Below, one piece after another: positions 14,470 to 52,438 of a stretch of 64,000 bases of DNA. Both the position numbers and the translations under genes were made by a program. Numbering within the stretch: position 1 is the stretch's first letter; each line of letters starts with the position of its first letter. The stretch is from the NCBI GenBank assembly GCA_964035545.1, contig OZ037769.1, positions 10,136,633-10,200,632 on the forward strand, in the 5' to 3' direction. The notes under the pieces were generated by a model. The model ran no database searches and was not told where the DNA came from. It saw nothing but the letters and a program-made list of their open reading frames with translations. This DNA comes from Bugula neritina (Eukaryota > Animalia > Bryozoa).

Positions 14470-17400
14470 TACATAGAGTAATTCTGGCTATACAATAGTA
14501 CATTTGTATTAAACATTTCATAGCACCTAACCTCTATTCGAGTTGGCGTCGGCATCAATACTTTCCTCCATTCTTTTACATATCATGTCTACAAGCCTTT
14601 CAAACACTTGCTTCACATTGACATTGTCTTTTGCTGATGTCTCAAAGAAATCTACCCCTGTATCAATTATTACATATTATCTCAAACAGAAGAGGTAAAT
14701 ACAGTTTTGCAGGTATATGGACCTTATATAATACAGTAATTAATGTCAAGGGAAAATCTAATCATAGCCATGAAATCAGTGAGCTGCACAACAGAAACAA
14801 GCACCTGGTGATACTTGCCTAATGAAGATGCCAGTTGATAGCCTCTCTCTTGACTCACAACTCTTTCATCCTCCAAGTCACACTTATTACCGACTAGTAT
14901 CACTTGGGGACTGTCCCAGGAGTAAGTGCTAATCTGAGTACACCTGTAGACACAGGATATTACATCTATGTGTACTACCAGTCTAATCTATAGACATCTT
15001 AACAATCTAATCTATAGACATCTTACCAATCTAATCTATAGACATCTTACCAATCTAATCTATAGACATCTTACCAATCTAATCTATAGACATCTTATCA
15101 ATCTAATCTATAGACAGCTTATCAATCTAATCTATAGACATCTTACCAATCTCGAGTAGCAGCAAATGACTCTTCATTGCTGACATCGTACATGAGTATA
15201 AATCCCATAGCCCCTCTGTAGTAGGCGGTGGTGATGGTTCTGTACCTCTCTTGGCCAGCCGTGTCCTGCACAGACATGTAATATACCACATTATATGTCT
15301 ACAGGTAGGTGTGGAAACTACTAGACTACAGGTAGGTGTGGAAACTACTAGACTACAGGTAGGTGTGGAAACTACTAGACTACAGGTAGGTGTGGAAACT
15401 ACTAGACTACAGGTAGGTGTGGAAGCTACTAGACTACAGGTAGGTGTGGAAACTACTAGACTACAGGTAGGTGTGGAAGCTACTAGACTACAGGTAGGTG
15501 TGGAAACTACTAGACTACAGGTAGGTGTGGAAACTACTAGACTACAGGTAGGTGTGGAAACTACTAGACTACAGGTAGGTGTGGAAACTACTAGACTACA
15601 GGTAGGTGTGGAAGCTACTAGACTACAGGTAGGTGTGGAAACTACTAGACTACAGGTAGGTGTGGAAGCTACTAGACTACAGGTAGGTGTGGAAACTACT
15701 AGACTACAGGTAGGTGTGGAAACTACTAGACTACAGGTAGGTGTGGAAGCTACTAGACTACAGGTAGGTGTGGAAACTACTAGACTACAGGTAGGTGTGG
15801 AAACTACTAGACTACAGGTAGGTGTGGAAACTACTAGACTACAGGTAGGTGTGGAAGCTACTAGACTACAGGTAGGTGTGGAAACTACTAGACTACAGGT
15901 AGGTGTGGAAGCTACTAGACTACAGGTAGGTGTGGAAACTACTAGACTACAGGTAGGTGTGGAAACTACTAGACTACAGGTAGGTGTGGAAACTACTAGA
16001 CTACAGGTAGGTGTGGAAGCTACTAGACTACAGGTAGGTGTGGAAACTACTAGACTACAGGTAGGTGTGGAAACTACTAGACTACAGGTAGGTGTGGAAA
16101 CTACTAGACTACAGGTAGGTGTGGAAACTACTAGACTACAGGTAGGTGTGGAAACTACTAGACTACAGGTAGGTGTGGAAACTACTAGACTACAGGTAGG
16201 TGTGGAAACTACTAGACTACAGGTAGGTGTGGAAACTACTAGACTACAGGGACATGTATTACTGAAGTCAATGCTATAGAAAGAACAATCACATGTCAAA
16301 CCCTGAGATACTGTAGATTGCTACTATTGCAGCCAGTTCCCAACTTTTATAGCATGTTTAGCAGTAATATGAATGTAAACGGGCAGCAATGTTATTTGAA
16401 CTGGCAACAGCTACTGACACTGCATTCCTGCAAGTGCAGCCCTGAAACTCCCCAGTCTTCATCAAGTTAGTGTGCCTCTGCAGTAGTGCTGCTGTAACTA
16501 CCCCAAGTTACTGTGCCATACTGATCAAAAGGCAGATAACTCCCACTCTGCCCTTATACCATAAACAGCTAGTGTTAGGTGCAGCAAGTGTCACTATAAG
16601 TTGGAAGTTGCATAAATGGAGCAGTTTCATAAATTCATATACTTTTCTCAACCCTGAGCTCAACTTGGTGTTGAATTTCACTAACATCTTGACTGACTTT
16701 AACAACCGTCCTCAAAACAAGAAGCTGACTGAGATAGGTACGTCCTGACCCATCAGGGCAGCAGTCCCTCACTCATGGGCCCAGACTCAAACATCTGGTC
16801 CTAAACTTGGTTTGAGATACTCAGCCAGTAAGATTATTTTTTGCCCTTGATGTTGCAATAAGTTTAGATGTCACATTTGTATTGGTGCTGCTGTTGATTA
16901 CATAATATTTTTTCAGTGACACTGAAATAAATAATTAACAAGTTATTTGCACAATTATTGTAAGAAAACTCACTTGCCATTTTTATACAATGTACATAAA
17001 TTACAAGGGAAATAAAATCAATAGAACTAATACTGCTATGCTGTATGACTTTATTTGCAGTAGAATTCCTTGTATAGCGTTGTGTACTAGAGGCTCACAC
17101 TCTGAAAATGTTAACAACTCCTACCCTAGGGTTTAGTTGTCACATTGATTAGTCAATAGTCTGGTAATACGATGAGACAACTCCAAGGAACATGTCCTGT
17201 ACATATAATTATCACCTGGATTACAAGCCTTTGACACAAATACACTAAATATTCAACAAAACCCAATGGTTGACCTCAAGTTCTCACAAATAACTCATAA
17301 ATCTCCGGATAGTCAAATTCAACTGTCACTACAACCACAAGCGATTAGCTTCTATACTAACATTTTTACTTATTCTTATTATGATAATGTCAGGATGGCA

Positions 17401-23299: not shown

Positions 23300-24816
23300 A
23301 CTATCTATAGTTAAACTTATAGTTATAATAATATTTATTGCTTATATTCATAGTTGTATATTAGATTAAACTTATAGTAATACTAATAGTATAAATATAA
23401 TTACATTTAATAAAAAAAAGATATGAAAGTGAGGAGTTCCTGCGCAATATGGCTCTGTGAAGAGGTGCTCGGCAGAAATAATTAATCTGATCTGATTACA
23501 TTTACTGTATTAGTATTAGTAATATTAATAGTAAACTAGTGATACTTAATTTTATAGTTAATAGGGCTACAGCTATATGACTATCAGTATCACCATGATT
23601 TCAACTTGTAATTAAATTTATAACCTATGACTAGGCAGGCTATGCCTATAGTAATACAGTAATACTAATACTATTAGTAATAGTAATACAGTAATACTAA
23701 TAGTAAATCATGAATGTAATACTAATACTAATAGTAATAGTAATACTAATACTAATAGTAATAAGTAAATCACTAAAAGTAAATGAAATAATAAAATCAT
23801 AATGATACTGATAGTCATAGTGATAATCATTTAATCATAATCATAATGATAACCATAACGTAAAACTGAATCAAAATGTAGTATTTAAACTTAAAGTTAA
23901 ATAGTTAAAATGTTACACTTTGAATTACAGCTTTATTATTATTAATATTAGAACATTGTGATTGACTTTGAGTTTAAATAAATAAAATAACAAAATGTGC
24001 TGCTAATTTTTGGTCAGAGTCTTCTAAATTTTTAGTGCAATTATAATATTAATAATATTATTATACATAGTTGAGGGTGTTGGTACAGTTTCTAAAAAAA
24101 ATAATGTAAAAGTCAAGTGTGGTATGTGTAGGGTAACTACAAAATAATGCATACAAAGAGTTTAACACTTTCTCGCTAAATTAAAGGTCAAGGATATTGC
24201 AATAGTAGACCTACCAAAACTTTTTTGTATCATCATCATATTATTATGATGGATGTAAATTATGATTATAATTAAAACCTTTAAATAAATGTCCAATAGT
24301 TATAGTCACATTATAATTTAAATTAGCAGTAAGTCACTTGGTAAAATAAACGTAAGTAATGTGTTTCAATTAATTACAAATATTATTACTATAAGTTTAA
24401 GTATAAGTATATTTTAATGGTGTACCTCAGCCAGTACTTTTAGTTTTTCAACTTTTCAAGTTAATCTTCATCTTCATCTTGAACTTGACTCTTGAGAGTT
24501 GAGAATGAGTCTCACTCTCAGTCTTGTGATCACCGATTTATGTTAAAATCAATTATCATATTAAATTTAATATCCATTTCATTATCAACGTAGTTGTGAA
24601 TATGGTAAATATTCAATGTTATTAATATTATTACTATTAGCTCTTACTCTTAGTCTTTCTCTTTGCTGATTACTCAATCGAAATAAATCATTACTCATAA
24701 TCATACTGATACTCATAGTGATAGTCATTAGTCATTACTGATCACTCTCATTACTCATACTCATAGTCATACTCATTCGTGATTAGTCTTAGAAATGTAA
24801 ACACTATTAGTAATAC
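23300..24816. repeat. 3/6-bp periodic AT-rich tract (patchy); continues at 32304-33140 beyond the E1 insertion
   Basis: tactaa/tagtaa/tcatac/tcatag mosaics; (ctactgctagtg)n at ~32416-32530. Confidence 0.65.
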
Positions 24817-25415
24817 TGTTATGTTTTCCAGAATTAGGGTTGATATGCAATCCAGAGAGTCTAATTACTTGCTATAGAACTGCACCAGGATAAGTCGAGT
24901 GAACGAGTATATATTTTAAACACAATAATACATTACAAAAACGATACAAATACATCTGACAATTTACACATCTAGACTATTCAGCACTCTAACTTCGACT
25001 GACTAACAGCGGGAAAACTATTACTGCTGCTAACTAATCCTAAGCCGCTAATTGGCTATCAATTGTTCCGGGTCAATTACACGACCCCATATACTGTGCT
25101 GCTGGTAGCTCCACGAGCCACCACACCGCCCCCACCAGCAGAAAGCCCTCTTTCTGATATATAAAAACATTCATCCTTAACCACATACATCAGTAGACCA
25201 AAAGATAGTACATAACACATATAAAGATATCTAATAGCAGACAGAGTCATTATAACAGCAAGTTACATACAATTGGCCAGCTATAGAGGAGGAATACCGG
25301 CTAGCTGTAGTATTGGACAAAGAGTCGACCTGTCGAGCAGTCAAGCATTTGCATGATAGTCTTGGGTCTCCCAAGAAGGCGAAGTTGTGGATTATTCCGG
25401 GTAGCAGAACCAGAG

Positions 25416-26488
25416 TCAATGTTGGGCACGCCGATGTTTGGCTTGGCATGTACGTAGCTTCCGCTTGATCCGGCCCACTGATCCTTTCAGTTGGAAGAAC
25501 CCCGTCGTGGTGTTGAGCAGGTCGGGTGCTAACTGGGTAAATTCCTCTTGTAATCGGAGGAGACGTTCCTCTACTGTGGCCAGGCGAGCAGGGTCTGGGG
25601 ACGGTGTCCGTCTGCGGCGCAGAGGGGGACTGGGAGACCTGGTTCGTCTCTTCGTCGGGGTAGGGGAGACTTCTCCCTCTTCGGGGTAGGAAAGTTCCTC
25701 GGGGGTGTACGCAATCTGAGGGCGGTCAGATACCAATGGGGATTGTTGCCTGGCATAGTCTAATACGCGTTGGAAGCCCGAGGTCAGGACAGCTAACAGC
25801 ATCGCCTTCTTTACTAGGGGTCGTATCAGAGTGAGGAATTCTGGATAGAGTTTGGCATCTACTACGTAGTTCTCTCCGGAGAAACAGCCTGTTGCTCGAT
25901 GTCGGGTGACAGGGTAGGGGTAGACATCATTGTATCCACAGGGGCAGAATGTGAGTAAGAGATGGGCATTGACGTGTAGCTTCAAGGAGCGGTGAGATGC
26001 ACATTCTTCGCCACAAATCTGGCACCGCGTCCGTCCTCTGGACCCCCAGGCCGTTTCTATCTGCTCCTCTGATTTTGGAGACACCCACCGCCAACGGCGG
26101 CGCAGTGGCTCGGGCCGGTCACCATTGGCATACTCCTCAGGATGCGGAGCGGGAAGTGCTTTATCTCGTACCCTGGTTGTAGCGAGTCGAGTGTAATCTG
26201 AAAAAGTTTCAACAGTGTTAGTATAATACACTGCCGTGTTGTCGGCTTGAATAGCCTGGCAACTCCTCATTCAGTTACCTCGTAGAGATTTATGGTAGTG
26301 AATAGTCAGATAGAACACGTATTGCAATGAGATTATAAAAATCTCCAAGTCAAACTGAGTTCTTACTACGGTATTTCACTAACCTATCTTCAGCTCAATT
26401 GACTCAGTGAGTCGGAGCTGAGCGATGCAATCTAGTTTCCATATTAAGATATAGTTAACTCACCCCACGATCTGTTGTCGTAAGACAT
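25416..26488 (-). CDS. E1 accessory ORF3, predicted spliced (26464-26488 + 25416-26197), 268 aa: C2H2 + C2HC zinc fingers, SP/R-rich linker, coiled coil
   Basis: CQIC-x12-H-x3-H then CPC-x12-H-x4-C; donor G|gtgagt; branch point TACTAAC; acceptor tttttcag|; homologues in E2 and E4. Confidence 0.75.
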
Positions 26489-26512
26489 ACTGAATTTGTG
26501 AAATGGTTTGAA

Positions 26513-29500
26513 CTACTGCTTAGAAACACGTCTACTCCTGACTGCATCAGCGTATGAAAAGATCGAGCAACGTGGTTGGGGTGCGTGATTAAGACTTTGT
26601 GCACCCGGCGGATGAATATTGTTTCCATTTCCGCCGATACAAAAGTTGATATTTTCGTGGTGTTGACAACTCCCACATTTGCTCGATACTTTTCTCGTAC
26701 GGTTTTCCCCTAGACTTTCATACGCGCCGCTTTTAACGCAGTCGCATACGAACTCCTTCAAATATGCGGGGGGTTGCCTCGTACGCTGCCCCCTTTCTAG
26801 GGGGGGTGACACGCTCGCCGGTTTATTAGCAGGGGCCTCTAATGGCGTCTCTACTTCACCGTTAGCGGTCACTTCTTCTTGTTCTCCGGATAGAGCCCCT
26901 CCCTCCGTGGGGGTTTGCACTTCCGGAACCGGCTCGGTTTCCGGAAGTGGTGGAATCAGACTTGGCGGTGGCGGACACGCTTCTGTTAGTAAAAGCGGTC
27001 GCTCATCTCTCATTAATCTTTCTTCCCGCGGTATGACCACTTCATATTCAGGTCCATGCCGCCGTCGCCCGCGCGTTGTTGTCTGCCTCCTGGGCTCTAA
27101 CAACGGGGGGGGGGGGCTTCTCCCACTCCGTCGGGGCTAGCCCAATACGGCTTCAAGCGAGACTCATTCTGGATAGACACCTGTCCTGAGCGCTCAATCT
27201 TGTACGTATGGTTGGGCATAGCCTCGACGATCACGTAGGGTCCCACGAACTTAGGCTGTAACTTAGCCGCCTGTCTGCAACGCCTACGGTAATTGACCAT
27301 CCACACCTTATCCCCTGTTTGGTAGAGGGGTGGTTCCTCGGAATCTTCGTGTCGCACCTTCCACTGTTCACGCAGTATGTCGTGTGCGACCTTCATCCGT
27401 TCCACTAGTTCACTGGCATACTCGTGAATCGAGTTGTCTAGCTCTGGAACGTGGTAGGTGAGATGGTCAGGTACCCGGGTCTCTCTCCCGAGCATCAAGA
27501 GGTTTGGGGTCTCACCAGTACTGGTGTGTGGGGTGCTACGGTATGCACGCATGACCTGCGGCAACACCGTGTCCCATTCCTCTTGACTGCGTCCAAGGAG
27601 GAGACTCCGGAGCGCATCACCTAGCATCCGGTTGTTGCGCTCCACCACCCCATTGCCTTGCGGGTGATAGAAGGTGGTCCTGCTCTGATTTACTCCCCAG
27701 AGGCGGCAAAGGTCGCTCATCAGTTGAGACTGGAATTGAGCGCCTTGATCAGAGTGTATCTGCTCGGGTAGACCGAAATAACAGAATACATGTTGGTCTA
27801 GTACCCTGGCCACTGTTGGGGGCCGATGCATCTGGGATAGCCAGAGCATCCGCCCACCTAGTAAAGTGGTCGGTTAATACTAATATCCAACTATTGCCTC
27901 TGGGGGGTCAGGGGCATGGGTCCGACCAGGTCAACAGCTACCACTTGCTACAGCCTGCCAGCATATAGCCTCCGCCGTCCCTCTTCACCAGGGAGACGGC
28001 CATGCTTGCTGGCCTGGCAGATTTCGCACTGCTTAACTCTGAGCCGGACATCCCACCCCATTTTGGACCAATACCACCGGAGTTGTAGTTTGGAGATCAC
28101 CCTCTTGACCCCTGCGTGGGCCTGTTTGTGAGTGTCCCAGATCAACTCGCGGCGTATGGCACTGGGGCAGACCACCCTTTTCCTCTCCGGGTGTCTGCCA
28201 TTGGCAGCTAGAGAGATGGTCAATAGACCATCCTGCCCGATCCTCAGCGAGTCCCAACTGGCAGAGTAGCCGGAACTCGGCGCATCCCTGCCGTATACGT
28301 TCCTCGCTGGGTCGTCGCCCATCCTTTTTGGCCCGATATATGTCTGCCACTACTCCAGGCAACTCCTCTTGGAGCTTCTGCAGCTCCTGGACATTATCGG
28401 CCAGTACAGGATTGGCGCGGAGGTTCTGTACAACCTCCGGGGACTCGTCAACCTCCTGCCTGAGTTGACCTTGGTCCCAGTCAAACGGTGCTCCGTGGTG
28501 AGCCAATGTCTCCAACTCGCGTCGCGGGGGACCTCCGTCCCTCCTCTCGATGTTGAGACACTGTTTGCAACCTCCATCAGGTCGGCGGCTCAGACCATCC
28601 GCATTGCTGTGTCTCTTGCCCGGTCGATGTTCGATCCGGTACGAGAATTCAGCTAGGATTTCGAGCCACCGGGCGACCTGACTAGAGGGCTCTGCTCTCT
28701 TGCACAACCAGATCAGCGAGGCATGATCCGTACGCAGCCGGAACTTCCTGCCATATAAGTATGGTCTGAAGTGCTTCACTGACTTGATTACTGCCAGCAG
28801 CTCCTTGCGGGTAGTGCAGTAATTTCGTTCAGTGGGTGAGAGAGACTTGCTGTAGTAGGCTACTACTACCTCTCGGCCTTCCTGCACTTGAGACAGCACA
28901 GCGCCAACATTTTGGTCACTGGCATCAGTGTCGAGGATGTACTCCAGAGTGGGGTCTGGGTAGGCCAAGATGGGCGCCGTTAGCAGGCAGCCCTTGAGGC
29001 GGTCGAACGCTCCTTGTTCGACTGGGGTCCACTGCCACGTCACCCCCTTTGCGGTGAGCCGGTTTAACGGCTGTGCTATGCCCGCAAAGTCTGGTATGTA
29101 TTGCCTGTAATACCCTACCAGCCCCAAGAAAGCCCGAAGTCCGGTCAAGTCTTGGGGCGTGACCCAGTCTTCTATTGCTCGTACCTTCTCAGGATCCGTT
29201 GCCACGCCGTTTCGACCGACAACGTGCCCCAGGTAGTTAACCTCTGGCTGCAATAGAGCGCACTTGGAAGGTTTGAGCTTAAGACCGGCACCTCGGAGTC
29301 TCTCAAAGACCTTCCGCAGACGACCGACATGCGTCTCGAAGTCTGGGGAGATCACGATGACATCATCGAGGTAGATCAGCAGTGTCTTCCAATGGAGCCC
29401 GCTGAGGACTTGCTCCATCAGCCTCTGGAAGGTGGCTGGGGCGGAGGTTAACCCGAAAGGCAACACCTTCCACTTCCACAAACCGTCCCATGTGATAAAC

Positions 29501-31063
29501 GCCGCTTTCTCCTGGGCGTCGGGACTCAGAGGAACTTGCCAATAGCCGCTTAGCAAGTCTAACGTACTGAAGTACTTGCTGCCGGCTAGGGCGTCCAATG
29601 ACTCGTCAATACGAGGTAGAGGGTAGGCGTCCTGTATGGTTACGCTATTGAGTTTGCGGTAATCCACACAGAACCGCCAACTGCCGTCTTTCTTCCGGAC
29701 CAATACGACCGGCGAGCTCCACGCACTATGGGCGGGCTCTATGAGGCCGCGGTCCAGAAGATCCCGTACTTGTCGGCTAACCTCCTTCTCTTTTTCCGGC
29801 CCCAGCCTGCGTGTGGGCTGCCGGACAGGGACTGTCCCTGCAGTCAGCGGTATTTCGTGTCTGACAATTCCAGTCAGTCCCACGTCATGATCTCCGCTGC
29901 TGAACACATCACCGTAGTCGCGTAGCAACTTCGCCATAGCTTGGCGTTCTTTGTTACTCGCGCAGCCGCCACAGGCTGTATCATACAAGTCCCGGAGATG
30001 TGTTGGGACTGTCCCTCGCCCTTGAGTAGGGCACCGAGGGAGTGCCTCCGTCGCATCACCCAGCGACGGGCCCACGTCCTCCTCTTGAACAGAGTGAAAA
30101 CGGCCCAGCATAGACCCAGCCGGAAGCTTGACAGACTCGGTAAAAGGGTTGACGCACTGCACTAAGATCTCCCCTTGCTCAGTCAGCTGGTTCAGACTGC
30201 TGGCAAGTTGGATCCTTTCAGACGCGCCTTCAACTACCCCGAGTCCAGAGATCCGGTTATTGTTCACCCTGCAGTGAATGGTAGCCCGGGAGCGGCCTGG
30301 TATGGTACGGTTGCATACCACTTGCACACCTCCCACTAAAGGCCGGCCGAACTTGTCGACGCAGGCGAGTTCTCGCCCGGACATCATCATCGCAGATTTA
30401 CTAAAATCGATGTGACATCCGTGCCGTTTTAGGAATGGCATCCCGAGGATGGCGTCCTCCTTGAGCTGACTGACGATAAACGTCTCTTGGATCGTTTGAT
30501 CGCGGACTCGTCCAGTCAGCTCAATTATACCATAGAAGGGTGCCATACTCCCCCTCGTATGGTTCCATCTCACCCCTGACCCTAGCACTGAGGGTGTCGA
30601 AGAGTTGGCGACTTAAGAGTTTCGTGGTACAGCCTGAATCAATGAGGAAAGTAACAGCCTTGCCTTCCAGTTTACCGGGCAAGAAATAGCTGTTCCCATG
30701 GGGCTGCACCTGAACTCTCTCTTCAGGCCTTACTCTCGCAGGGAGTACCCCCCTCGCTTTGGGTCGTGAAGGAGGTCTCTTGGGATGGTGGTAAGTGGGC
30801 CTCGGGGGTGCCGAGGCTAGATTCCGGGCTACCTTTGTTGGCTCCCATCCAGATTCTTGGGCTTGTAGCCCTGCGAATCTGTTGTGAAGGGGAATGGAAA
30901 AGGTAGCGGCGGGGCGGAGCCCCTTGCTGGTCCGTCGTGGCTGTTGCCACTGTCGGTTTCCAGTACGCGGTACCCGTCTAGGTGACCTGCGTTTCTTCTT
31001 CCCTGGAGGTTTCATCGTCGGCCCGCAGGAGGTGGGAACATCTGCGGGCCGCGGTAGTTTAAC
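26513..31063 (-). pseudogene. pol: E1 pol (protease LIDSG, RT YLDD, RNase H, integrase), interrupted by frameshifts near 30540, 28260, 27830 and 27110
   Basis: ORF pieces 30521-31123, 28033-30588, 27948-28322, 27097-27849 and 26513-27103 are colinear with the E2/E3 pol. Confidence 0.92.
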
Positions 31064-31963
31064 CCCGGAGTTAGGAAGGGACAGTACCTGCGAAAATGTC
31101 CTTGATTTCCGCATTCCCAGCAAAAACTGACTGTTTCTCCCTGTGGCGGCGCTGGTGGCCGTACGGGCTCAGCGGCGGTACCTACTGGGGTTTGGGGTGT
31201 CAGTGTTGCTATCAGTTTGGCCAGCATGTCTGTCAGTTGAGTGACTTTCGATGCCGTCGCTAACTGGGACACGGCAGCCGTGGCGGAGGTTTCCTCCTCT
31301 CGTCCCGCGGCCGTGTCCGCGCGGTCTACCTCCACTTGACGGGAGCTCCCGCGACTTTTATGCATTTGATTAGCTAGGAGGTAAGCTTCCCCCTCAGTCA
31401 GAGCATCTTCAACGGTGGTGACTCCCCTAGCTAGAAACTGGTGGTGGAGACCCAAATCGTCGACAGATGCTATGAAAGCGTCGAGGGTATACCTCTCGCG
31501 GTTGACTGGGGGCAAGTCGCTGTATGCGATCTGTGCCAGCTTCATGACCGCGGCGGCGTGCTCCCGCAGCGGGGTGCGGGGATCACACCGCAACCTCTGC
31601 AATCAGGCCTTGGCATCTGTAGCAGAGAGGCCGAAGCCGGCCCGCAGAGAAGCAAAGATATTATCAATGTCTACGCCCAGCCCATAAGGCTTGGCTTTGT
31701 CCATCAATGCCATTCTAAGCTTCAGCAGGGCCACCCTAGGGGGCCACTGGGCGACGTCCATTACGTCGCTAAACTCTTGGATAAATTGTTCCACCTCCTC
31801 TTCGCCCGTGAAGGTGGGCGCCTTTAACCGGTAGCGGTCTTCAGTTAGTTCTCGCGGAACCCTTCGCTCTTCTACTACATGGTTAACAGGCATTGTCTAC
31901 AGCATTGTCTCTACGCTCACCTTCTACTGCCGGTGGTTGCGTTCCAGCATTTTCAGTCTCCAT
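31012..31963 (-). pseudogene. gag: E1 gag with CCHC knuckle; frameshift near 31890 and in-frame TGA at 31603
   Basis: METENAG.. start matches E2; APTFTGEEEVEQF; CWECGNQGHFRRYC. Confidence 0.88.
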
Positions 31964-34732
31964 CTTGGATGCACTATCCCACCGCTGCCACCACTGTTAT
32001 GTTTTCCAGAATTAGGGTTGATATGCAATCCAGAGAGTCTAATTACTTGCTATAGAACTGCACCAGGATAAGTCGAGTGAACGAGTATATATTTTAAACA
32101 CAATAATACATTACAAAAACGATACAAATACATCTGACAATTTACACATCTAGACTATTCAGCACTCTAACTTCGACTGACTAACAGCGGGAAAACTATT
32201 ACTGCTGCTAACTAATCCTAAGCCGCTAATTGGCTATCAATTGTTCCGGGTCAATTACACGACCCCATATACTGTGCTGCTGGTAGCTCCACGAGCCACC
32301 ACAATACTATTAGTATTACATTTACTATTAGTATTACTATTAGTATTACAGCTACTACTACGTCTACTTACTACTATATTAGTATTACTAAGTCTAATAG
32401 TAATACTAATACTGCTACTGCTAGTGCTACTGCTAGTGCTACTGCTAGTGCTACTGCTAGTGCTACTGCTAGTGCTACTGCTAGTGCTACTGCTAGTACT
32501 ACTGCTAGTACTACTGCTAGTACTACTACTAGTTCTTAGAGTTGGTCTTACAGTTACTAGTATAATATTATTAGTAATACTAATACTTATACACTTACAG
32601 TTATACTTTTATAGTTGAAGTTATACTAATGGTAATACTAATACTAATTGATAGGTATAGGATGAGGATCATGATGATCATACTCATAACATTAATTTTA
32701 ATTTAACTTATAAGAATAAGTCGTACTCATACTCACTAAATACTATCGGTAATTATACTGATGCTCATATTCATACTGTAATACTAATACTCATAGTGAT
32801 GGTGATACAGTAACAGTTACAGTTATATTAATAGTAATAATGATGATGGTGAGGATCTGATAGTCATACGCTAACACAGTTACTGATTACACTTACACTT
32901 TATAGAGGCTCATGTTGATAGTTATTGTCATAGGGACACTGATACTCATATTGGCATTGCTTTTTTGGAATGACTATCAGTATCACTATGAAATTTAATT
33001 TGGCTCCAAGTCTAACTTTGAGATAAACTCTGAGTGTTAGTACCAGTATCAATAAGTGACTATCAGTATGAGTATGAGTATCGCTATCAAAGTCAGTATA
33101 AGTATTGCAATATGAGTAAAAGTATGACTATGAGTATGATTTCAGTTCAGAGAGATGACCTCCAGATAAACGACCATCAATATATTCTACATAGACAACC
33201 CCCCCCCCCCCCAACTGGACGACTTTCATTTAGACGACTTTATAATTTGAAAACACTAAAAATTACTAAAAATAAATTTAATGACATTTGATACTAAGTT
33301 GCATTTATTTTGATTTCATGTGAATCTATGTGCACAGGTGTCTAACTGAAGCTATTTATAGGTGTATAACTGAAGCCATATGCATAATATGACTCATTAA
33401 AACTATTGCTCTAACAGTTTGCTAAAGCCATATCCATAAGATGCCTAATTTTTTTGAAATGATATAATATAATTTTTTAAAACTATTCTTTTACATTATA
33501 TTCGTTCAATTTGAATTTGAATTTGAATATCATCTGCACATATATTTGATAGCAATATTTTGGTAGTCTAACTGGGGGTCATCTATCTGGAATGACACCA
33601 TGAGTATTATGACTATGACTATAACTATCATCGTGATAATGATAAAGCTAGGCATTGGGTTAGGGTGTTTTAGCTCTAAGTGTAGTGAAACTTATTAACT
33701 GTTATGCTAAGCTTAATGTTTATTTAGCTATAGTACATCTGACAATTATAATAGTTATACTTGCAGTAATATTAAGTTAGACCGCAGAATCCGCTTGGTC
33801 AGTTAGTGGTTCTACAATTTTTGTCTAGCAGTAGATGAGGCAATAGAATGCTTGTGTCTATGCTTGGTAATCGCTTTGATAGTAGCGAACCAACATACAA
33901 AGCTGATTTCTCAGATTAAAGATTAGTAATGGAAGTTTATCAACATTTAATTGGTTGGAGCCTCTTTACCTGTTTAAACTTTGATTTCGGTTTGATTTCG
34001 TCCTAGTCAATCTTTGGCTAAAATTGAATAAATGTGATGAAACTACAATCATTTTGTTGACCTAAAGTTTTGTGGGTATTTTATTATTGCATATGATGTA
34101 GGCAAATGTACTTCATAGTCCTGGTTCTTGAGTGAGTGTGTGTGTGCAGGTGTGATGAAAATGAAAGTTTAATAATGCATTGGAAAGATTATGGTGCAAC
34201 AAGTCTAATCTAAAATTTTACCTCATTCAACAATATCTTAGCTGAACTTCCTGTAGTTGAACTTTTGTTTAACTATGAAACTAATTTATACTTATTATTT
34301 ATATATTTATACACATATAACTCAATCTATTGGCAATTTTTATTTGAAGGGTTCAGCTCCTTCTCAGTACATAACAGAGCTATAACAGCTCATGTCGTTG
34401 CAATAGAAGAAACTAATGTTTCTACCAAAACAAATTTGGTAAAAAAATTAGCTATATTACCACACAGTGAACAGGATCTAACTACTCACATTATTCACTA
34501 CATTTGCTGCTGCTACCAGTATACTTGATATCATCAAAACTACCTCTGAAATGTCATCGGAAATGTTGTGATATTTTATAACTAGTAAATGGCACTGTAC
34601 AAGATGAGCTAGGTATCACGTCAAGACACATTAGCAGGGTTATTTACTTGTAGATGAAGCACAGTATCTTCATTGTATCCTAACATCGCCTTCTGTCAGT
34701 ATCATCCAAGTCGACAGTGTTACAAGACTGAG

Positions 34733-37700
34733 ATGTGGGATTTCATTTTCTACCAATGTTCAGTTTTAACCTTCATCTTACTCTACTGGTTTCACAAACC
34801 CAAGGATCAAACCTCATCCCCACCTTCTAATCCAATTAACCAGCAATCTTCATCTGGTGAAAAAGGTAAGTAGCTTACACACATTGTGCTCCAACCATAC
34901 TCCAGTTTACCGTTATATCTTCTTTATTAATCTGTGCTATGAAGCTCAGTGTTGTGAGTCTTATAGCTAATTCAACAATCTAATATAACTTAGGCCTTTA
35001 GCCACAGCTTTATGGTTGTTTCAACTCTAATGTATGACGCTGTTTTCTAACTTTGAGTTCTCAACTATAAACTCAAATGTTGACAGAAGTTTGAGACCAT
35101 CGAATAATCCAACCCAGGATTTAAAGTTCATGAATTTAGCTATAACTATAACAGTGTGACATGCTGATAGCTATCAGCATGTCACACAGTTAAGGTTATG
35201 TACTAGTCCGAAGTGCTGACTTGAATACTTACAAATTTGTGTACTTGTTGACTTGAGTACTGGCTTATCTGTGTACTTGATGTTCCTTGGCTATAAAATC
35301 ATTGACTTGGTTTGTGTAAACTATTTGCTTGGTTTCTCCAATTGCTTATGTTTATATATTTACTTTATGCCGTTGAATTTTTTTCCGAGTGTAGGTCTCA
35401 ACTAGGTCTATTTTATTCCTAGCTTCTATTGCATATATTTAAATAAATTTGCTAAATCATAATTAGATTTTAAGCATAATTTTTTAATGATTTTTCAATG
35501 AAAGTTCAAAAATTTAAATAATCAGATTTATTTGGAATGTGAGAGCGATTTATTGGCTATGTTATTATTAGACGTTATTGTCATTGTTGCCTATCTACAT
35601 GATGGACATTTCTTATTTTATTTTAAACATGTTTAAAACATACTAGTTTAAAATATCTGAAACTAAAGCTAACCATTAATTTATTGTCTTTTTAGCTGCT
35701 CAATTCATGTAAACAACCACCAGTTTTGCTAAGTTCATGTCAATTTTCAAATGAGCTGTGCAAACTATGTTAAATTGATCAAATAGTTGCAAGTCATTCT
35801 TCAACTTATGTGCTTGTAAATTTATATCATTGCCGAACTTGACTCTGCTGTGATTTAGTTTTTTTTGAGCTCAGGTCATTACTTAATATGACTTGATAAG
35901 CTGTAAATATGACTTGAATTACTCTCACTTCTACCTACAGAAATGATTGAACAGTGCATGTTACTAGACAGTAGGGTAGTCTCAAACTCTATCTTTATTT
36001 GAAGTACCTATTTTCTGAAGCTGTGTTATTAAAGTACATTATGCAATTTAATCTTATTAGGGATCTAATATTATGCACTTAAAGTCAGGGCTATTGCAAT
36101 GTTTAATTTTAGTCACATTTATTTTGCCCAGACTATCTTCTTTTATTTGTTCAAAATTCAAGCTCATAATTGTTAATAAAGTAACTAAACTTGTTCTCAC
36201 ACTATACTATATATAAACTTGTCTGCTTTATTCATGTCTAATAAAGGATTGTGCCCTCCTGTTTTCTCAATGAATTTGATCTTATGTTTTCTTCGTCATG
36301 GCTTCTATCTTAACTACTTGCTAGTTGGTTTATTCTAAGATTCACTCATAGAACCATCAGTAATGTAAATCTACGTAAATAGTCATAATTTTCTTTAAAC
36401 AGCCCCTAATTTAAATTTTCGCAACTTATCGTTGCATACAAAGCCTCACATATTTTGTACATTGTGATAACAAGTGTGCTTGTTTTATGGGGGCATACCA
36501 TTGTGTGAAACTGCATAATAGTAATATGTAGAGTTAGTAAATGAATTGTTTTTAAAAAACAAATGTTATTTTGCTTTTCTGGTAATTCTAAGGTGATGTT
36601 TGGAAATCAAGAATTAACCTTTTCCCTTATTAGTTATCTTCTTTTTGTAAATGTAAAAACGTAGAGCAGTGCTAATATTAGAGTGGTGCTAACATAGAAT
36701 AGTGCTAACATAGAATAGTGCTAACATAGAATAGTGCTAACATAGAATAGTGCTAACATAGGCTCTCTGAAATTAATTGAAAGTTCTTCACATTTTTATT
36801 TTATGACACAGTCACCAACTTCTCCCTCAAATGGTTTCAGTTGTAAGAAAAATAAAGACGTTTTGTTGATATTACTATAGCTAAAGTTTATGTGATGAAA
36901 AAGTAACATGCTGATAGTGGGTTTTGAACCCCCACAGGATTTTAGATAGGTTCATGTTTTATTCTCTTTATTAAAGCATTTATGTTATTAAGATAGTTTA
37001 TTATTGTTATTTATTTATTATTTTATTGTATTTATATAACAGTTGGTCACTAAAGCTTGCACTTAGATCTAATTTGAGTAGTTGGGTTCAAACTAAATGT
37101 TAATTGAATTGAGTTTAATATTTTTTTGGAAATGCTGATAATCCAAAGCATAGCATAAAAGCAGTTGACCTCAATTACTGTAAACATTTCAATTTGCAAA
37201 ACATATTTTACAAATTTGGAAACTTCTGGTGACAGTAAATAGTGTTCAGCCAATTTTGTTTATTTCAGTTATGCTGTATGCAGATAGAATTTATACTATG
37301 AGTTATAATATATGATGAATTGATTGTTTCAGACCAACTTCTCACATCTAAGTCAGTGGAATCAGCCGAGATCGATGCTAGTCTAAAAACAAAGGCACGA
37401 CAACGTCTAACAAGTTTTCGTCGGAGAAAGGACCTGGTTGAGCATGAAATTATACTTTCCCTGGGGCTGAATCCTGACGAAGAAGGGTTTGAAGCATTTT
37501 GTGACAAGTTTAGCACTTTTGAATATGTTAGCGAAGCTCTGGTTAAGGCTGGTTTCTGTTCATGTGACATGATAATTGGCATAGATTTCACGGCGAGCAA
37601 TGAATGGCAAGGAAAACGTTCTTTCAGCAAAAACAACCTTCATAAAATCAATGGCTCAAAAATATTCAACCCGTACCAGAAAGTTCTGCAGATTGTTGGG

Positions 37701-38273
37701 AAGACCTTGTCATTTTTAAGTAGTGATCATGTGATTCATTGTTATGGGTTCGGTGACGTGGAAACCAAAGACCACTCTGTGTTTTCTCTACAGGATAAGA
37801 CAACTCATTGTACTGATTATAAAGAAATTATAGACGCCTACACTCAAACAGCAAAGCATATTCAGCTAAGCGGTCCTACTAACTTCGCCCCTATGATAAA
37901 CAAGGGGATAGAATATTGTGAGATAACGGGTAAATATCACGTACTCATTATGATAGTGGACGGTCAGGTATCTTCTAAATCTGAGAAACAGACTGTTGAG
38001 GCCATAGTCAGGGCCAGTGACTACCCACTCAGTATTATTGTCATCGGTATAGGTGACGGACCTTTTGGCACTATGTTTGAGTACGATGATGGACTGCCCA
38101 AGAGAAAGTTTGACAATCTGCAGTTTGTTAACTTTCATCGTACAGTTACTAAAAGTAAACACGAAGCTGCTTTTGCTCTACACGCATTAATGGAGTTGCC
38201 TGATCAATACAAGGCAATCCAGCAATTGGGGTATTTACAAAATCACACTGTAGCTGATAAGAAGAGAGTGTAG
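34733..38273 (+). CDS. Copine/RGLG-type vWA-domain protein, ~357 aa, with N-terminal hydrophobic segment; exons 34733-34865 and 37333-38273
   Basis: MIIGIDFTASNEWQG, NPYQ, YGFGD, LSGPTNFAPMI, DGQV, ASDYPLSIIVIGIGDGPF, RKFDNLQFV and ALMELPDQY. Phase-1 donor AAAG|gtaagt fits acceptor tttcag|AC. Exon 1 is less certain than exon 2. Confidence 0.85.
36686..36761. repeat. Short minisatellite x~4.5 (gtgctaacatagaata)
   Basis: Direct reading. Confidence 0.8.
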
Positions 38274-42863: not shown

Positions 42864-44983
42864 TGTGATGGATTTTAATAGTTGTCGTCACTATGTTCTG
42901 AAAGTTCTAGTTTATATAATAATTACTATAATTGACTTGGCGTAACTTTTTGAATGCTGTTAAGTGTTGTAATTATAGCTAAGCTCTTAGCGTAGTGAAT
43001 AGCGTAATGATTGTGAATTACCCTTCCTAGTTTTGTTTGTTATAAAATACTGTAATAACTTTTGTTAAGCTATCTTCCCGCCTATTTTTTCATTTTTTTT
43101 GTAAATAGATCTTTAAGTCAGTCTACCACTCGACCAATGCACATCTAGAAGACAATAAAGAAACTTTTTATTTCCAGATCAAGAAGACTTTTATTATCAC
43201 AATAGTAATAAGGCATGCAGATTGCTTCATCTATTTCATAAATACTCTACAAGTTACTACATGGGGGGCAGCGGTGGGATATAAAATAAACATGCAAGAC
43301 AGGCAGCCATTACTAAAGAAGAAGAAGAAAGAAGAAGGACAAAGAAAGAAAAATAGAGATGGGGAGAGAAGGAAGAGAAAAAGAACCTCTCACCATGGAG
43401 ACACTCATTACTGCCCTCCGAGAAGTCAGTGGGGCTGGGCAGGCGCCACCTGGTGACAGGCATCAACTTAGGCCTCCGATTTTCGGAGATGAGGGGGATG
43501 TAGAACAATTCATTAGGGAGTTCGAAGAGGTAGCCAACGTCGCTGGATGGCCGGCCCAGACATGCCTCCTTCAACTCCAGACCTGTTTTACAGATCAGGC
43601 AAAGAGTTACAGCCTCGGTTTTAATGTTGGCCATATCTTTCAGGCCCTCAGGTCCGGTTTCGAGATCACCGCCCGTGCTGCCAAAGATCGCCTAAGAAGT
43701 ATACAACAAAACAGGAAGACGTCGCTCCAGGACCGCGCCAATGCTATAGAAGCACTGGCACAAGTGGCCTACAGCGATGTCGATCCGGAAGAACGACGAA
43801 GCTTGGTATACGAAGTATTCTCCCATACCATCAACAATGCCATGTTACGTTATTACTTGGCGACAAAAATCACCACCATTGGGGAAGCCCTGGCCATTGG
43901 AGAGGCGTACTACGAAGTAGAGGGATTCCAGGGAGCGCACTTCACGGCCAGCCAGGTAGAGGAGCAACCTGAAGCAACAAAGCCGGTCCACTGAGCCCTC
44001 AGACTGCTGCACCTTCACCCAGCCAACTCACCGTATTGATGGACATGATGAAGGGCTTACAAGCAGAGATAAAGAAGATGCAGCAAGAACAAGCTAATAG
44101 GCGAGCACCCAGGTCTTGGGGCGAACTTATCGGCTCTTCACATCTCACCTGTTAGAGGAGGGATGTGGCACCATGGGACATGTGCGTAGGCAGTGTTCTC
44201 AAGAAGGAAGGATGTCTTTAAACACCCGAGGCTCACGGCAACTTCCGCCAACCGTGGGCCCCAAGCCAACCTCGTCGGAGTTGCCCGAGGAGGGTGTGGA
44301 AGAGAATGCAGCTTACTCGCAAGAGTTTCCCAAGCTACTTTCACAACCTCAGAAAACCCCCGGTGTCTGTAAGACGAAGAGGGGGCCCGCTGTAAGAACT
44401 CAAGAAGTGTCTCCCTCAAAGACTGACCGCTCCAGGAACACCCAGCCGTACAGAAGCAGCTACTTTCTGCCTGGAAAAATTTCGGGTAAAGCTGCCACCT
44501 CCCTGCTAGACACCGGGTGCAATACAAACCTGCTGAGTCGGCGTCTCTTTGACACTCTTGGTGCCCGAGAGTGGGCAAGCCTCGAGCGGCATGAGGGTGC
44601 ACATGGCACATTGGCGGACGGATCATGTATTCCTTCTTACGGCATCATTACACTACCTGGACGCGTCTGCGATCAGGAAAATCCCCCTCGTACCAGTCGA
44701 GGAGCAGTCCTGGAGCACTTGGCTGATCTGTATGGTGAAGCGTGTGACAACTGTACGAGTAGTACTGAATGCCAAGTACTGGCTCAACTACTTATGGAGT
44801 ACGGTGATGGTTTCAGTCGCGAAGACAGGGACATGGGGCTGACCAAGGTTATCTCTCATGAGATACTCCTGGCAGCCGGCACCACCCCTATCAAACAGCC
44901 AACCCGACATCTAGGCTCGGAGAAGGAGGTAAGCCGGCAGGTGCAGGATCTTCTCAACCGGGACCTGATTGAGCCTGCTCACA
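42864..44983 (+). mobile_element. E0: 5' fragment of a related Gypsy element (LTR ~42864-43261, degenerate tRNA-Leu PBS, gag, internally deleted protease and RT start)
   Basis: PBS-like ggcagcggtgggat ending at 43280; gag 43359-43994 is similar to the E3 gag; protease LLDTG; similarity stops after DLIEPAH. The LTR start is inferred from TGTGATG. Confidence 0.85.
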
Positions 44984-46054
44984 AAATGTGGGAAACTGTG
45001 TAGCTTTAGCGAGTTTTAATTTTGGTAGCTCAAGAAGAGCGGTAGATTATTAGTTGTTTGTTTGCAACAAACTGCGTAGAGACAATAATTTAACAGTATT
45101 GATTCGAATAGTTTTATAAGCAGCTCCAAGTTAGGGGTGACTGCGTGCAGTAGTTTGCGGTTCTCGAGTTTAAGGTTTAGGGTTTATTGGAACTCCTATT
45201 TACAAAAAGCCCGAGAACCGCAAACACTGCGCTTAGTTCTTCCCAACTTGACGCAGTGTGGTATATTTAGGAGTGTTGACTTTAAACCATGAAAAATCAT
45301 AATGCCGCTATTGGTACCGCGAGTTTATATAAGTTATAAAAGAAAAATTTTGTCACTTTTGTGATTTTATTTTTTTTTAATTTTATGTGTCTATTTTTTT
45401 TAATTTTGTTTATTAGTAAAGTTTTTAAACATATTTTCAATGCATATAAAATTAAAAAAAAAATTAAAACTCAATCACGTGTTATAATTTTCAGATTTAG
45501 GGTCGATGTGCCACCAAGAGAGTCTATTTATCACTAGAGAAACTTCACCGAGTTAAGTCGAGTAGATATCGTTATATTTTAATACAAGAATACATAATAA
45601 AATCTAATGTACAACAGTAATGATACGCACGTCTATTTAATTTACAGCACTATCCTCAACTGAGCTAGTAGCGCGAAGCTGCTACTATTACTCATAAAAC
45701 AGCCTAGCTAATTGGCTAATGCATTGTTCCGGGTCAATACGCAACCTTGCGTATTGTGTTGCTGGTAGCTCCACGAGCCACCACACTGCCCCCTCCAGCA
45801 GAAAGCCCTCTTTCTGATAAAAATAAAATTCACATAAAAAAACGTATACTTCGTTGCGGGGGGAAGAGAACAGTATAAAAGTATATACAAAAAAACAAAC
45901 AACCGATAAAATATACAGGTATATATAAAACGTGCAGAATAAGTAATAAGTAAGAGAAGGTCCTATCTACATGTAGAGTACGTGCCACCATAACGGTAGG
46001 GAATGCCACAGAGAGGTAGGGGAAGAGTAGTATGGAGTTGGAGATAGACTCAAG

Positions 46055-47184
46055 TTAACTGCGGGCCGCACGCTTCATGCGTTTAATAGACTCCTGTAAA
46101 TATTTGAGTTCACTGGATGCAGCCTGCACCCGCGGGGCCAGTCTGTACACTTCTTGCTCCAAGTCGTGTGCCCTAGCTTCTACTTCACGTAGGTTGCGGG
46201 CCCAGGGGGACGAGCGAGAGGAAGTCGGCTGTCTGTGTCTTTTCCGCTCTGAGGATGGAAGGGGAGGAGGAAGTGTATACGCATTCGTGTCTACCCTCTG
46301 TAGTACGACACGAGGAAAGGTATGCGGTATGCGTAGAGGACTGTGAGGTGGAGAGTTAGTAGACTGTATAGGTTTATCTGTGGCTCCAGAGATGATGGGT
46401 CACGGGGAAGGGAAGCCTTGCTCCAGGCGAGATAGCCGAGCTGGGTCAGTGATGAGTGGTTTGATGGCGTTGAGAAATGCAGGATAGGATGATTCGTCTA
46501 CTTCATAGACATGTCCTTGATAACACTGCATAGTACGTTGGTGACGCAGTAGGTAATCACGATTGTAGCTATATTCTCCGCAAGGGCAGAAAGTGGTGAT
46601 GTAATGTTGCGGCAAGTGTACTTTCAGTCTGCGGTGGGTTGTAAATCGCTGCTGGCAGAGGTTGCATTCGCAATTACTTTCACCTCCTTGATGAGTCCTA
46701 ATCTCTCTCTCTGTGGCAGGGGTAATCCAGTTGGAGGTTGCTTCCAACTGGGGTGGCAGTTGCCTGGTTGTAGAAGTTGTTGGGGCCGGCTCTGGGTCCC
46801 ACGCCATCTCTAGAGAAGGCATGCCCGGAGAGACGGGCGCGAGTGTGTCTACAAAAGTAGAATTATTGTTAGATTGCGGTGGATCTTTACAACATAATTC
46901 TAGTGACTGTCGACTGTTGCTAGCCTGAGAGTCACAGCTTTTGGAATGCACTCGAGGAACCGATGAATCATGTGTGGACTGACCAAGAACAGTGTCTAGC
47001 TCCAGGTCTAACAGACCATCGGCCATTACAGTGTCTTCATCGTCATTCACATGAAACGTGGTTCCCAGTAATTCTGATTCAATCTGCTGAATTAGTTCAG
47101 AATTTACTGGCATCGAGCCCGTTTCCATGAATAGGAATACAAGACTTATACTGGCTTACCTGGGAACTCGGTATTAATGTCCAT
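46055..47184 (-). pseudogene. E2 accessory ORF3, predicted spliced (47160-47184 + 46055-46848), with a single in-frame TGA at 46400
   Basis: CNLC-x12-H-x3-H and CPC-x12-H-x5-C. Reading through the TGA gives the homologous coiled coil ARNLREVEARAHDLEQEVYRLAP..SIKRMKRAARS*. Confidence 0.75.
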
Positions 47185-50100: not shown

Positions 50101-51243
50101 CAGCCTCTGGAAGGTGGCTGGGGCGGAGGTTAACCCGAAGGGCAGCACCTTCCACTTCCACAAACCGTCCCGTGTGATAAACGCCGCTTTCTCTTGGGCG
50201 TCGGGACTCAGAGGAACTTGCCAATAGCCGCTTAGCAAGTCTAACGTACCGAAGTACTTGCTGCCGGCTAGGGCGTCCAATGACTCGTCAATACGAGGTA
50301 GAGGGTAGGCGTCCTGTATGGTTACGCTATTGAGTTTGCGGTAATCCACACAGAACCGCCAACTGCTGTCTTTCTTCCGGACCAGTACGACTGGCGAGCT
50401 CCACGCACTATGGGCGGGCTCTATCAGTCCCCGGTCCAGAAGATCCCGTACTTGTCGGCTAACCTCCTTCTCTTTCTCCGGCCCCAGCCTGCGTGTGGGC
50501 TGCCGGACAGGGACTGTCCCTGCAGTCAGCGGTATTTCGTGTCTGACAGTTCCAGTCAGTCCCACGTCATGCTCTCCGCTGCTGAACACATCACCGTAGT
50601 CGCGTAGTAACTTAGCCATAACTTGGCGTTCTCTGTTACTCGCGCAGCCGCCACTGGCTGTTTCGTATAACTCCCGGAGATGTGTTGGGACTGCCCCTCG
50701 TCCCTGAATAGGGTGTCGAGGGGGTGCCTCCGTCGCGTCATCCAGCGACGGGCCCACGTCCTCTTCCTGGACGGAGTGGAACCGGCCCAGCATTGACCCA
50801 GCTGGGAGCTCAATGGGCTCGGTAAAGGGGTTGACACACTGCACTAAGACCTCCCCCCGCTCAGTTAGTCGGTTTAAACTACTGGCGAGTTGGATCCTTT
50901 CGTGCGCGCCTTCAACGACCCCGAGCCTGGCTATCTGGTTGCTGTTCACTCGGCAGTGGATAGTAGCTCTGGAGCGTCCGGGCACGGTGCAGTTTCGAAC
51001 TACCTGAACACCGCCCACCAGAAGACGCCCAAACTTATCCACACAGGCGAGTTCTCGCCCGCCCATCAGCACCACCGACTTACTAAAGTCTATTCGGCAC
51101 TGGTGTTGCTTCAAGAAGGGCATTCCGAGGATAGCATCTTCCTCCAGTTGGCCTATGACAAAGGTCTCCTGTACAGCGTGGTCTCGGACACGCCCAGGGA
51201 GCTCGATAATACCATAAAAGGGAATACATGACATCTTCGACAT
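47146..51243 (-). pseudogene. pol: E2 pol (partial PR, RT, RNase H, integrase) with one nonsense codon at 48271
   Basis: ORFs 48271-51243 and 47146-48249 are in the same frame, separated by a TGA where E3 has CGA. Confidence 0.93.
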
Positions 51244-51814
51244 CTTCCGACCCAGTAAAGGTGGGAGCTTTCAAGCAATGTCTATAAGCTTCTTCTCCCT
51301 CACGATTCACAGGATTAACAGCATTTCTACGCTCACCTTCTACTGGGGGTGGTTGCATTCTAGCATTTTCAGTCTCCATCTTTGATGTACACTATCCCAC
51401 TGCTGCCACCACTGTTGTAATTTTCAGATTTAGGGTCGATGTGCCACCAAGAGAGTCTATTTATCACTAGAGAAACTTCACCGAGTTAAGTCGAGTAGAT
51501 ATCGTTATATTTTAATACAAGAATACATAATAAAATCTAATGTACAACAGTAATGATACGCACGTCTATTTAATTTACAGCACTATCCTCAACTGAGCTA
51601 GTAGCGCGAAGCTGCTACTATTACTCATAAAACAGCCTAGCTAATTGGCTAATGCATTGTTCCGGGTCAATACGCAACCTTGCGTATTGTGTTGCTGGTA
51701 GCTCCACGAGCCACCACACATGCACGTAAATACAAAGCTATAAAGTTTAAGCTTTGCTGTGATTACAACGTGAATATGAATTGAATAATACTTGCAATAA
51801 CCATTTTACACAAA

Positions 51815-52392
51815 ATACGTTACAGTTGCTATAAATGTAAGACTAGTAAATTGGATGCAAATAGGCACGGTAATACTACTTAATATATATGCTATTTTTG
51901 AAATTTGTAGTAAATATTTGGCATGTATTATATATATATATATATATATAATAATAATATATTATATATTGTTATATTATATATTATAATATATTATATA
52001 TTATTATATTATATTATATATATATAATAATATCATATATAATATATTATTATATTATATATTATATTATATATATATAATAATATCATATATAATATAT
52101 TATTATATTATATTATATATAATATATATATATTATAATAATATATTATACATTAATATATTATATATTATATATATAATAATATCATATATAATATATA
52201 TATATATTATAATATTATATTATATATTATATTATATATGTATATTATATATATATAATAATATCATACATAATATATATAATATACTATTATATTATAT
52301 ATTATATATATATTATATATATATAATATTATCATATATAATATATTATTATATTATATAATAAATTATATTTATTATATATATAATAATAT

Positions 52393-52438
<46 letters not shown>

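Follow-up and report, generated by a model that had tools for sequence, protein, structure and literature searches.

The locus and its Ty3/Gypsy elements

The window analyzed here is a 64,000-nt stretch of AT-rich animal DNA from Bugula neritina, and it holds four Ty3/Gypsy LTR elements, all on the minus strand, to which the coordinates of their genes and parts given below also refer. E1 (24817-32303) is an LTR retrotransposon whose gag and pol are disrupted by frameshifts and stops; its LTRs (24817-25125 and 31995-32303) are identical and are flanked by a 4-bp target duplication. E2 (45480-51718) has lost most of gag, and both its gag and its pol are broken. E3 (52518-59756), used as a comparator, has neither the finger ORF described below nor a gag-leader donor, and its 5' LTR is interrupted by E4 (59754-63987), a 4.2 kb non-autonomous element with most of pol missing. 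A domain search found the order protease, RT, RNase H, integrase complete in E3, and RT, RNase H and integrase in E2; the same region of E1 is 90% identical to that of E2, and the pol of E3 is related to the others' at about 70% DNA identity. Paired TG..CA LTRs, target duplications of 4 bp (with one mismatch in E2), a primer site that we read as tRNA-Leu and a polypurine tract are all present, as in Ty3/Gypsy elements generally. The LTR pairs differ at only 0-3 positions over the lengths compared, so the insertions are young.

Several other features were seen in the window. A small AT-rich, MITE-like element with perfect 45-nt inverted ends (51814-52518) hosts E3, in whose 5' LTR E4 is nested in turn. 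On the plus strand, 43317-45003 holds the decayed remnant of a fifth Gypsy element, with a gag like that of E3; tblastn finds no finger ORF in it. The insertions of E1, E3 and E4, three of the four, share an ATAC/GTAT target flank (24813-24816, 52514-52517 and 59750-59753; for E3 one flank lies in the window), which suggests that integrase prefers certain sequences whether or not the finger gene is present. The pol tail of E3 is a long, acidic, proline-rich ORF of 285 aa (53400-54436) with no Pfam match, and it occupies the position that the finger gene has in the other elements. Directly before the polypurine tract, a hairpin with a CAGAAA...TTTCTG stem and a variable loop is present in each of the four elements, even in E3 with its lack of a finger gene (25126-25170, 45787-45830, 53073-53115 and 60097-60142). 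A host ORF with a Copine vWA domain (PF07002, E 2e-56) is found on the plus strand at 37302-38273, and a 27-bp tandem array of about 37 copies (15127-16320) is open on both strands, over 397 and 369 codons.

A third gene behind pol

E1, E2 and E4 carry a sense-strand third ORF after pol, and this ORF is a real gene. It occurs in these three elements only; the rest of the window gave tblastn matches no better than E 0.13. Its main exon spans 25416-26197 in E1 (259 codons after the splice junction) and 60366-61108 in E4 (246 codons), and is intact in both. The E2 copy (46055-46848) has an in-frame stop at 46400-46402, which ends it after 148 residues at a point where homologues continue as a single ORF; the original prediction does not mention this stop.

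The gene is under purifying selection as judged from comparison of its copies. Over 237 codons, E1 and E4 differ with pN 0.33 and pS 0.75 (95, 70 and 149 differences at the three codon positions), and for the C-terminal helix alone pN is 0.19; between E1 and E2, the finger core gives pN 0.47 and pS 0.74. Synonymous sites are saturated, so these ratios should be taken as estimates of the upper-bound kind. For run X1, 40 of the 357 variant rows were listed; ten of those 40 fall in the main exon, and eight of the ten are synonymous. The accessory proteins of E1 and E2 are only about 29% identical despite 90% identity in pol (26640-30540 versus 47336-51222), and the E1 gene is nearer to that of E4 (53%) than to that of E2; the accessory module seems to have been swapped between element families. 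About 60 nt past the stop codon, the 3' UTRs of E1 and E4 share an identical 22-nt stretch holding ATGCAAAT, which we take to be an octamer motif (25347-25354 in E1, 60303-60310 in E4); this identity persists although their synonymous sites are saturated.

The encoded protein and its relatives

The two predicted finger motifs, the YxVD block, the S/P-rich linker and the heptad helix were all found in the product of the main exon. In E1, the two-finger domain (25719-26120; 134 aa) has the pattern C-x2-C-x12-H-x3-H followed by C-x-C-x12-H-x4-C, with flanking helices, and the C-terminal heptad/basic helix (25422-25592) covers residues 202-258 of the exon. Finger 1 is canonical and gives the only PDB sequence matches, the best at E 3e-7 over 23 residues. 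Finger 2 reads C-x-C-x12-H-x3-5-C across the family and is linked to finger 1 by five hydrophobic residues. In an alignment of 50 rows picked for diversity, C33, C36, H49, H53, C59, C61 and H74 are kept in 48-50 rows, W12 in 47 and C79 in 35. A heptad signal (shuffle p under 0.05) is present in 22 of 29 C-termini, chosen as long and apparently complete. All seven proteins inspected have basic clusters and no transmembrane segment, with a best 19-residue hydropathy of 1.51 or lower, from which the protein is judged to be soluble; it is further predicted to be nuclear, nucleic-acid-binding and oligomeric.

In the predicted model, which has a pLDDT of 95.5 and a pTM of 0.87, the two fingers form a single packed domain of 134 residues. 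The model of the whole exon is poor (pLDDT 61), and a fold search with it came back empty. With the domain model, no fold match at E <= 0.001 was found in PDB or BFVD (best Foldseek E 0.86) and none with Z >= 5 among 48161 chains (best Z 3.7), which does not in itself prove a new fold; an Atlas structure search gave only matches under 0.9. The weak structural neighbors of residues 23-83 are DNA-binding C2H2 finger arrays.

The original statement that the protein matches no described family has held up: none of the searches returned a named family or a significant Foldseek match. It has no Pfam family of its own, only generic C2H2 matches in nine of the 50 rows; the window copies fall under the Pfam cut-offs (best 16.9 bits) and P0154 passes PF13894, and an NCBIfam search returned nothing relevant. 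Relatives are nonetheless numerous. A word search gave 74 among 1588 candidates, none of them named, and 114 clusters, defined at 50% identity, came up in a profile search at E <= 0.001. Of 20 distant clusters examined, four bear a species name, in every case Watersipora subatra or Bugula neritina, and all four are annotated as "uncharacterized" or "hypothetical". The link of the domain to Gypsy elements holds beyond the window, since RNase H, integrase and the finger domain share a single ORF in P0206 (1460 aa), the Pol of which is 58% identical to that of E2, and P0110 and P0190 join pieces of pol to the domain. When alignment A4 was used to look for longer fusions, none turned up in 7977 candidates; this was a weak search, as the existence of P0206 indicates. 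Scans of metagenome contigs, viral contigs and prokaryote genomes for related DNA yielded no usable locus, the two metagenome-contig loci that came up matching over only 19-30 residues at about 50%, probably by chance.

Probable splicing from the gag leader

The junction proposed in the original prediction has all of the parts described for it. Mini-exons of 25, 25 and 22 nt lie in E1 (26464-26488), E2 (47160-47184) and E4 (61372-61393), with donors G/GTGAGT, G/GTAAGC and G/GTGAGT and introns of 266, 311 and 263 nt; a branch-like CTAAC is present in E1 and E2, with none in E4, and in all three a YAG acceptor creates a junction Asp codon in frame with the main exon. By a crude score, this acceptor is a good one without being the top site of its element: it ranks 7th of 223 YAG sites in E1, 6th of 191 in E2 and 12th of 103 in E4. 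It is very probable that some splice to the acceptor behind pol would be in use.

A second candidate first exon lies at the start of gag. In E1 (31921-31963) and E2 (51337-51379), 14 codons and 1 nt of gag are followed, 43 nt after the gag ATG, by a phase-1 donor AAG/GTGAGC, the phase of which fits the finger-exon acceptor. In both elements this donor is stronger than that of the mini-exon; in E1 it is the sole donor scoring at least 8/9 in 6.9 kb, in E2 it is one of two scoring at least 8/9, and finger-less E3 has no such donor near gag. The gag start of E4 (63454-63610) has no GT at the codon-15 position, and another phase-1 donor, CAG/GTAAAG, is found at 63454.

One database protein, P0027, appears already joined in this way. 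Its N-terminus consists of 14 Gag-like residues ending in Glu, followed exactly by the junction Asp; the remainder is 191/246 identical to E4, to which it is sister in the tree. Among the 2118 ATG-started 15-mers of the window, the best match to its leader is the gag start of E4 (score 32, next 21), and in an unanchored six-frame scan E4 gag comes second (30), behind an unrelated opposite-strand match (31). We interpret P0027 as coming from a spliced transcript, or from a copy derived from such a transcript, and its leader, joined at the junction Asp, points to env-like splicing. A genomic deletion could also mimic the join; P0027 is the one joined protein behind the Gag splice, and E4, nearest to it, has no GT at the leader position. 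Three other proteins considered as splice products, P0110, P0190 and P0048, are joined away from the acceptor and were set aside as deletion derivatives. Of the joints in run X1, which is not on record as RNA, none of the 15 listed (123 in total) falls at a predicted splice, which is uninformative either way. The gag leader is likely to be the main first coding exon of the accessory gene in E1, and splicing of the LTR transcript would probably join the gag-leader donor to the finger-exon acceptor. The top-scoring acceptors in E1 (26796) and E2 (47480) lie in the pol tail, in phase 1 in the pol frame; joined to the gag leader, they could give further isoforms with the cysteine-rich end of the tail.

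The mini-exon and a possible long form of E2

The mini-exon of E1, an ATG and 25 nt with a phase-1 donor, is in the frame of pol and lies 24 nt behind the pol stop; it is a plausible alternative first exon, giving a second route to the protein. Its counterpart in E4 is homologous, with a 3-nt indel, and differs in frame from the pol tail, and that of E2 lies within the last 12 codons of the pol-tail ORF (donor CAG/GTAAGC). The spacing of ATG and donor is identical in E1 and E2 while the surrounding bases match at just 10/36 and 4/21, which argues that these features are beyond chance. Upstream, the end of the pol tail holds a shared 149-nt block (E1 26528-26676, E2 47224-47372, E4 61429-61577), in which the differences between E1 and E4 are spread evenly over the codon positions (14/11/10 of about 50 each). 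Conservation without codon bias fits an internal start, or a recent exchange of the block, and the block is a candidate for an internal promoter or RNA element.

The accessory gene could be a separate two-exon gene, with the mini-exon as its main first exon and a promoter of its own inside the pol tail. Foamy virus Tas, a regulator of a complex retrovirus, is made from an internal promoter, and gene 23 of Grande is reportedly an analogue for such a separate gene. The kept ATG-donor spacing and the evenly spread differences of the upstream block speak for this arrangement, as does E4, which has kept the mini-exon and has no donor at the gag-leader position. On the other side, none of 44 aligned homologues of the E1/E4 type starts with the mini-exon peptide, the only joined one has the Gag leader, and the E2 intron is coding. 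As the main route it seems unlikely, though it can coexist with the gag-leader route. The two-exon model of the original prediction is supported only in part: the single spliced-looking product, P0027, has a Gag leader in place of the mini-exon, the E2 "intron" has the character of coding DNA, and in a distant relative the domain follows integrase in frame.

The short introns are of two kinds. Those of E1 (26198-26463; 266 nt) and E4 (61109-61371; 263 nt) have four and ten stops in the frame of the main exon and gaps of all sizes between them, and only one of the 44 aligned homologues reaches 80 residues upstream, all of which argues that the E1/E4-type intron is non-coding. The proposed intron of E2 is instead open for 102 codons in the frame of the main exon, the other two frames having nine and ten stops. 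Such openness was reached in 47 of 20000 shuffles, on which a reading as plain non-coding DNA was rejected. From an ATG within it, an N-terminal extension of 93 codons (46849-47128) is about 60% identical to homologues and acidic, with 12 D/E and no K/R in its first 50 residues. The region is covered by six of 11 homologues, five of them 59-65% identical and the closer P0083 82%, in a search limited to long proteins and so favoring open frames; P0126, P0132, P0166 and P0170, found independently, carry it as well. Its identity resembles that of the finger domain and is above the 29-41% of the linker. Acceptor-like bases are kept in these long-form homologues (Ser, Val or Leu before Asp or Ala), so spliced and unspliced forms may both exist. 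Splicing may in fact not be needed, given in-frame Met codons upstream of the fingers: at main-exon residues 24 and 9 in E4 and E2, at an ATG within the intron of E1 (26270), and three codons before the junction in 12 of 44 homologues. That both a mini-exon product from an internal start and an unspliced long form of the E2 type, with an acidic N-terminus, would add to the gag-leader product is an even call.

Possible functions of the accessory protein

The reading favored here, with about as much confidence as doubt, is that a third gene spliced from the gag leader would encode a dimeric nuclear regulator that binds the DNA of its own element and keeps it transcribed. The C-terminal helix would pair two copies of the protein, so that a target site in the LTR or in the interior of the element's DNA could be contacted by four fingers; host factors might be recruited by the acidic or S/P-rich parts, giving trans-activation or relief of silencing. 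DNA-reading C2H2 fingers typically have Asp at helix position +2, Val/Ile at +4 and Arg/Lys at +6; in the helix of finger 2, Asp is present at +2 in 33/50 rows, Val/Ile at +4 in 45/50 and Arg/Lys at +6 in 27/50. Finger 2 of the E1/E4 type has prolines in place of the Asp/Arg pattern. The helix pattern, together with a layout of acidic region, fingers and pairing helix as in transcription factors, suggests a DNA-binding regulator, an identification that falls slightly short of even; the combined step of a four-finger dimer on element DNA and host-factor recruitment is a serious prospect of similar, not quite even, standing.

With the same gene and the same splicing, the protein might instead act on RNA, binding structured, unspliced genomic transcripts and exporting them from the nucleus in the manner of CERV or Rev. 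An element with strong splice sites would need such export, the protein has arginine-rich stretches, and the precedent is better than for DNA binding: CERV, the accessory protein of C. elegans Cer1, is reported to have a spliced, Gag-shared N-terminus, a cysteine finger and a leucine zipper, and a requirement in export (PMC10309623). The short introns of E1, E2 and E4 fold stably (z -3.0, -3.5 and -3.7); scanned over 25126-31992, 45787-51410, 53073-59371 and 60097-63644, the intron is the most stable of 25 windows in E4 and of 27 in E2, and the E1 and E4 introns align at 169/253 positions though synonymous sites are saturated. Such folding is not specific, however, with 21/50 windows in E1 and 9/31 in finger-less E3 at z -3 or lower, a background too high for the intron fold to serve as evidence of a response element; covariation comes from two sequences only (6/45 pairs), an Rfam search gave no match, and the helix residues resemble those of DNA-reading fingers. 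An export factor is a less likely reading, though one to be kept in mind. Across most of gag-pol the sense RNA is more stably folded than shuffled sequence (median z -1.4 to -2.6), which is not the case for the finger exon (z +1.7 to -1.9).

The finger domain could also be a targeting or tethering module attached to integrase, comparable to the chromodomain of chromoviruses, with removal of the short intron fusing it to Pol. P0206, with RNase H, integrase and finger domain in one ORF, has just this arrangement, and the E2 donor is in frame within the pol tail. In E1, however, the end of pol precedes the ATG of the mini-exon by 24 nt, the frames do not agree in E4, non-autonomous E4 retains the ORF without an integrase core, and E3, lacking the gene, shares the ATAC target flank of E1 and E4, all of which makes targeting improbable. 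Least probable by far is that the ORF is a fragment of a host gene carried as passive cargo with no benefit to the element. In its favor, annotations of Watersipora subatra and Bugula neritina list homologues among the host genes, E3 lives without the gene and the E2 copy is broken; purifying selection between copies with saturated synonymous sites nevertheless largely refutes it. Of the 133 proteins that have a full domain, 52 were used for a tree, with 54 domains between them (99 columns, weak root); in it the pol-linked rows are widely scattered, and the genes annotated as host genes occupy three different positions.

Relationship to other accessory genes

The original prediction had seen nothing comparable in animal Gypsy elements, which does not hold in view of CERV (PMC10309623) and of the third ORFs of bdelloid rotifers (PMC5408684). 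CERV of the Gypsy/Ty3 element Cer1 is a spliced nuclear accessory regulator that has its N-terminus in common with Gag through splicing, acts in export of genomic RNA, is dispensable for transcription, and has no reported homologues outside nematodes (PMC10309623). As a known spliced, Gag-sharing cysteine-finger regulator, it makes the present family a variant of a described kind. The differences are substantial: CERV is described as 517 aa long and encoded by five exons, and it has a C4-type loop besides its H, M and G-protein-like domains (PMC10309623), whereas the bryozoan protein has about 250-370 aa, a C2H2 and a CCHC-type finger and a C-terminal helix, and no G-protein fold is listed among the matches of its domain model. 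Just 14 Gag residues would be shared, and export, proven for CERV, is here a prediction.

The env gene of Drosophila gypsy is likewise a third ORF in the same position, expressed from a spliced subgenomic RNA without gag and pol (PMC4276936). Unlike it, the present gene encodes a soluble finger protein with no fusion-protein features, and an env identity was rejected on the lack of a transmembrane segment and of any viral fold match. The non-env ORF3s of bdelloid LTR elements are modular and exchangeable, with a description as spliced units of their own, and one non-autonomous family retains its ORF3, as E4 does; they encode a GDSL esterase, a DEDDy exonuclease, or coiled-coil or transmembrane proteins, and the word "zinc" is absent from the accessible text (PMC5408684). 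Additional ORFs of plant LTR elements, such as gene 23 of Grande, similarly lie before the 3' LTR, and for some of them a nuclear location and a regulatory role have been found or proposed; the nuclear ones are antisense, unlike the gene described here, and "zinc" is again absent from the part of the review available (PMC7264820). Classical C2H2 proteins of the ZBTB, SALL and CTCF types have the same spacing in finger 1, and differ in that the present protein has a C-x-C...H...C second finger, a linker of five hydrophobic residues and no repeated canonical fingers. Their arrays have TGEKP-type linkers. No description of the finger ORF was listed in full-text literature searches, a scope outside which Repbase, Dfam, GyDB and most subscription journals lie; "zinc" and "splic" do not occur in the accessible text of PMC13524379, the element tables of which, and of PMC8220671, could hold relatives.

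On the sequence comparisons made here, the family appears to be undescribed, widespread and selected in Gypsy elements of marine invertebrates, and likely to be gag-spliced like env and CERV. A bolder proposal, and a doubtful one, is that a broad marine-invertebrate Gypsy lineage is "complex" in the retroviral style, expressing its own zinc-finger transcription factor by Gag-leader splice, mini-exon and integrase fusion, with the module swapped between families and repeatedly handed to bryozoan hosts. If true, elements would possess a counterpart of their own to the zinc-finger proteins with which hosts silence retroelements. Animal LTR retrotransposons with a characterized accessory regulator other than env are few, CERV being the one found in the literature searched; the present family would add a different protein, structurally well defined by its model, and it numbers over 100 clusters. 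Here, young elements that have the gene are neighbors of one that lacks it, which allows a direct test of whether a simple retrotransposon can encode its own trans-activator or export factor.

The analysis further points to an element origin for some of the zinc-finger genes that bryozoan annotations treat as "host" genes. The finger domain is present in the bryozoan proteins P0107/P0197 (Watersipora XP_067940964/3), P0154, P0198 and P0199, which are annotated as products of host genes and are possibly domesticated. The domain occurs twice in P0107, P0197 and P0154, and two Bugula genes that carry it have adjacent locus numbers.
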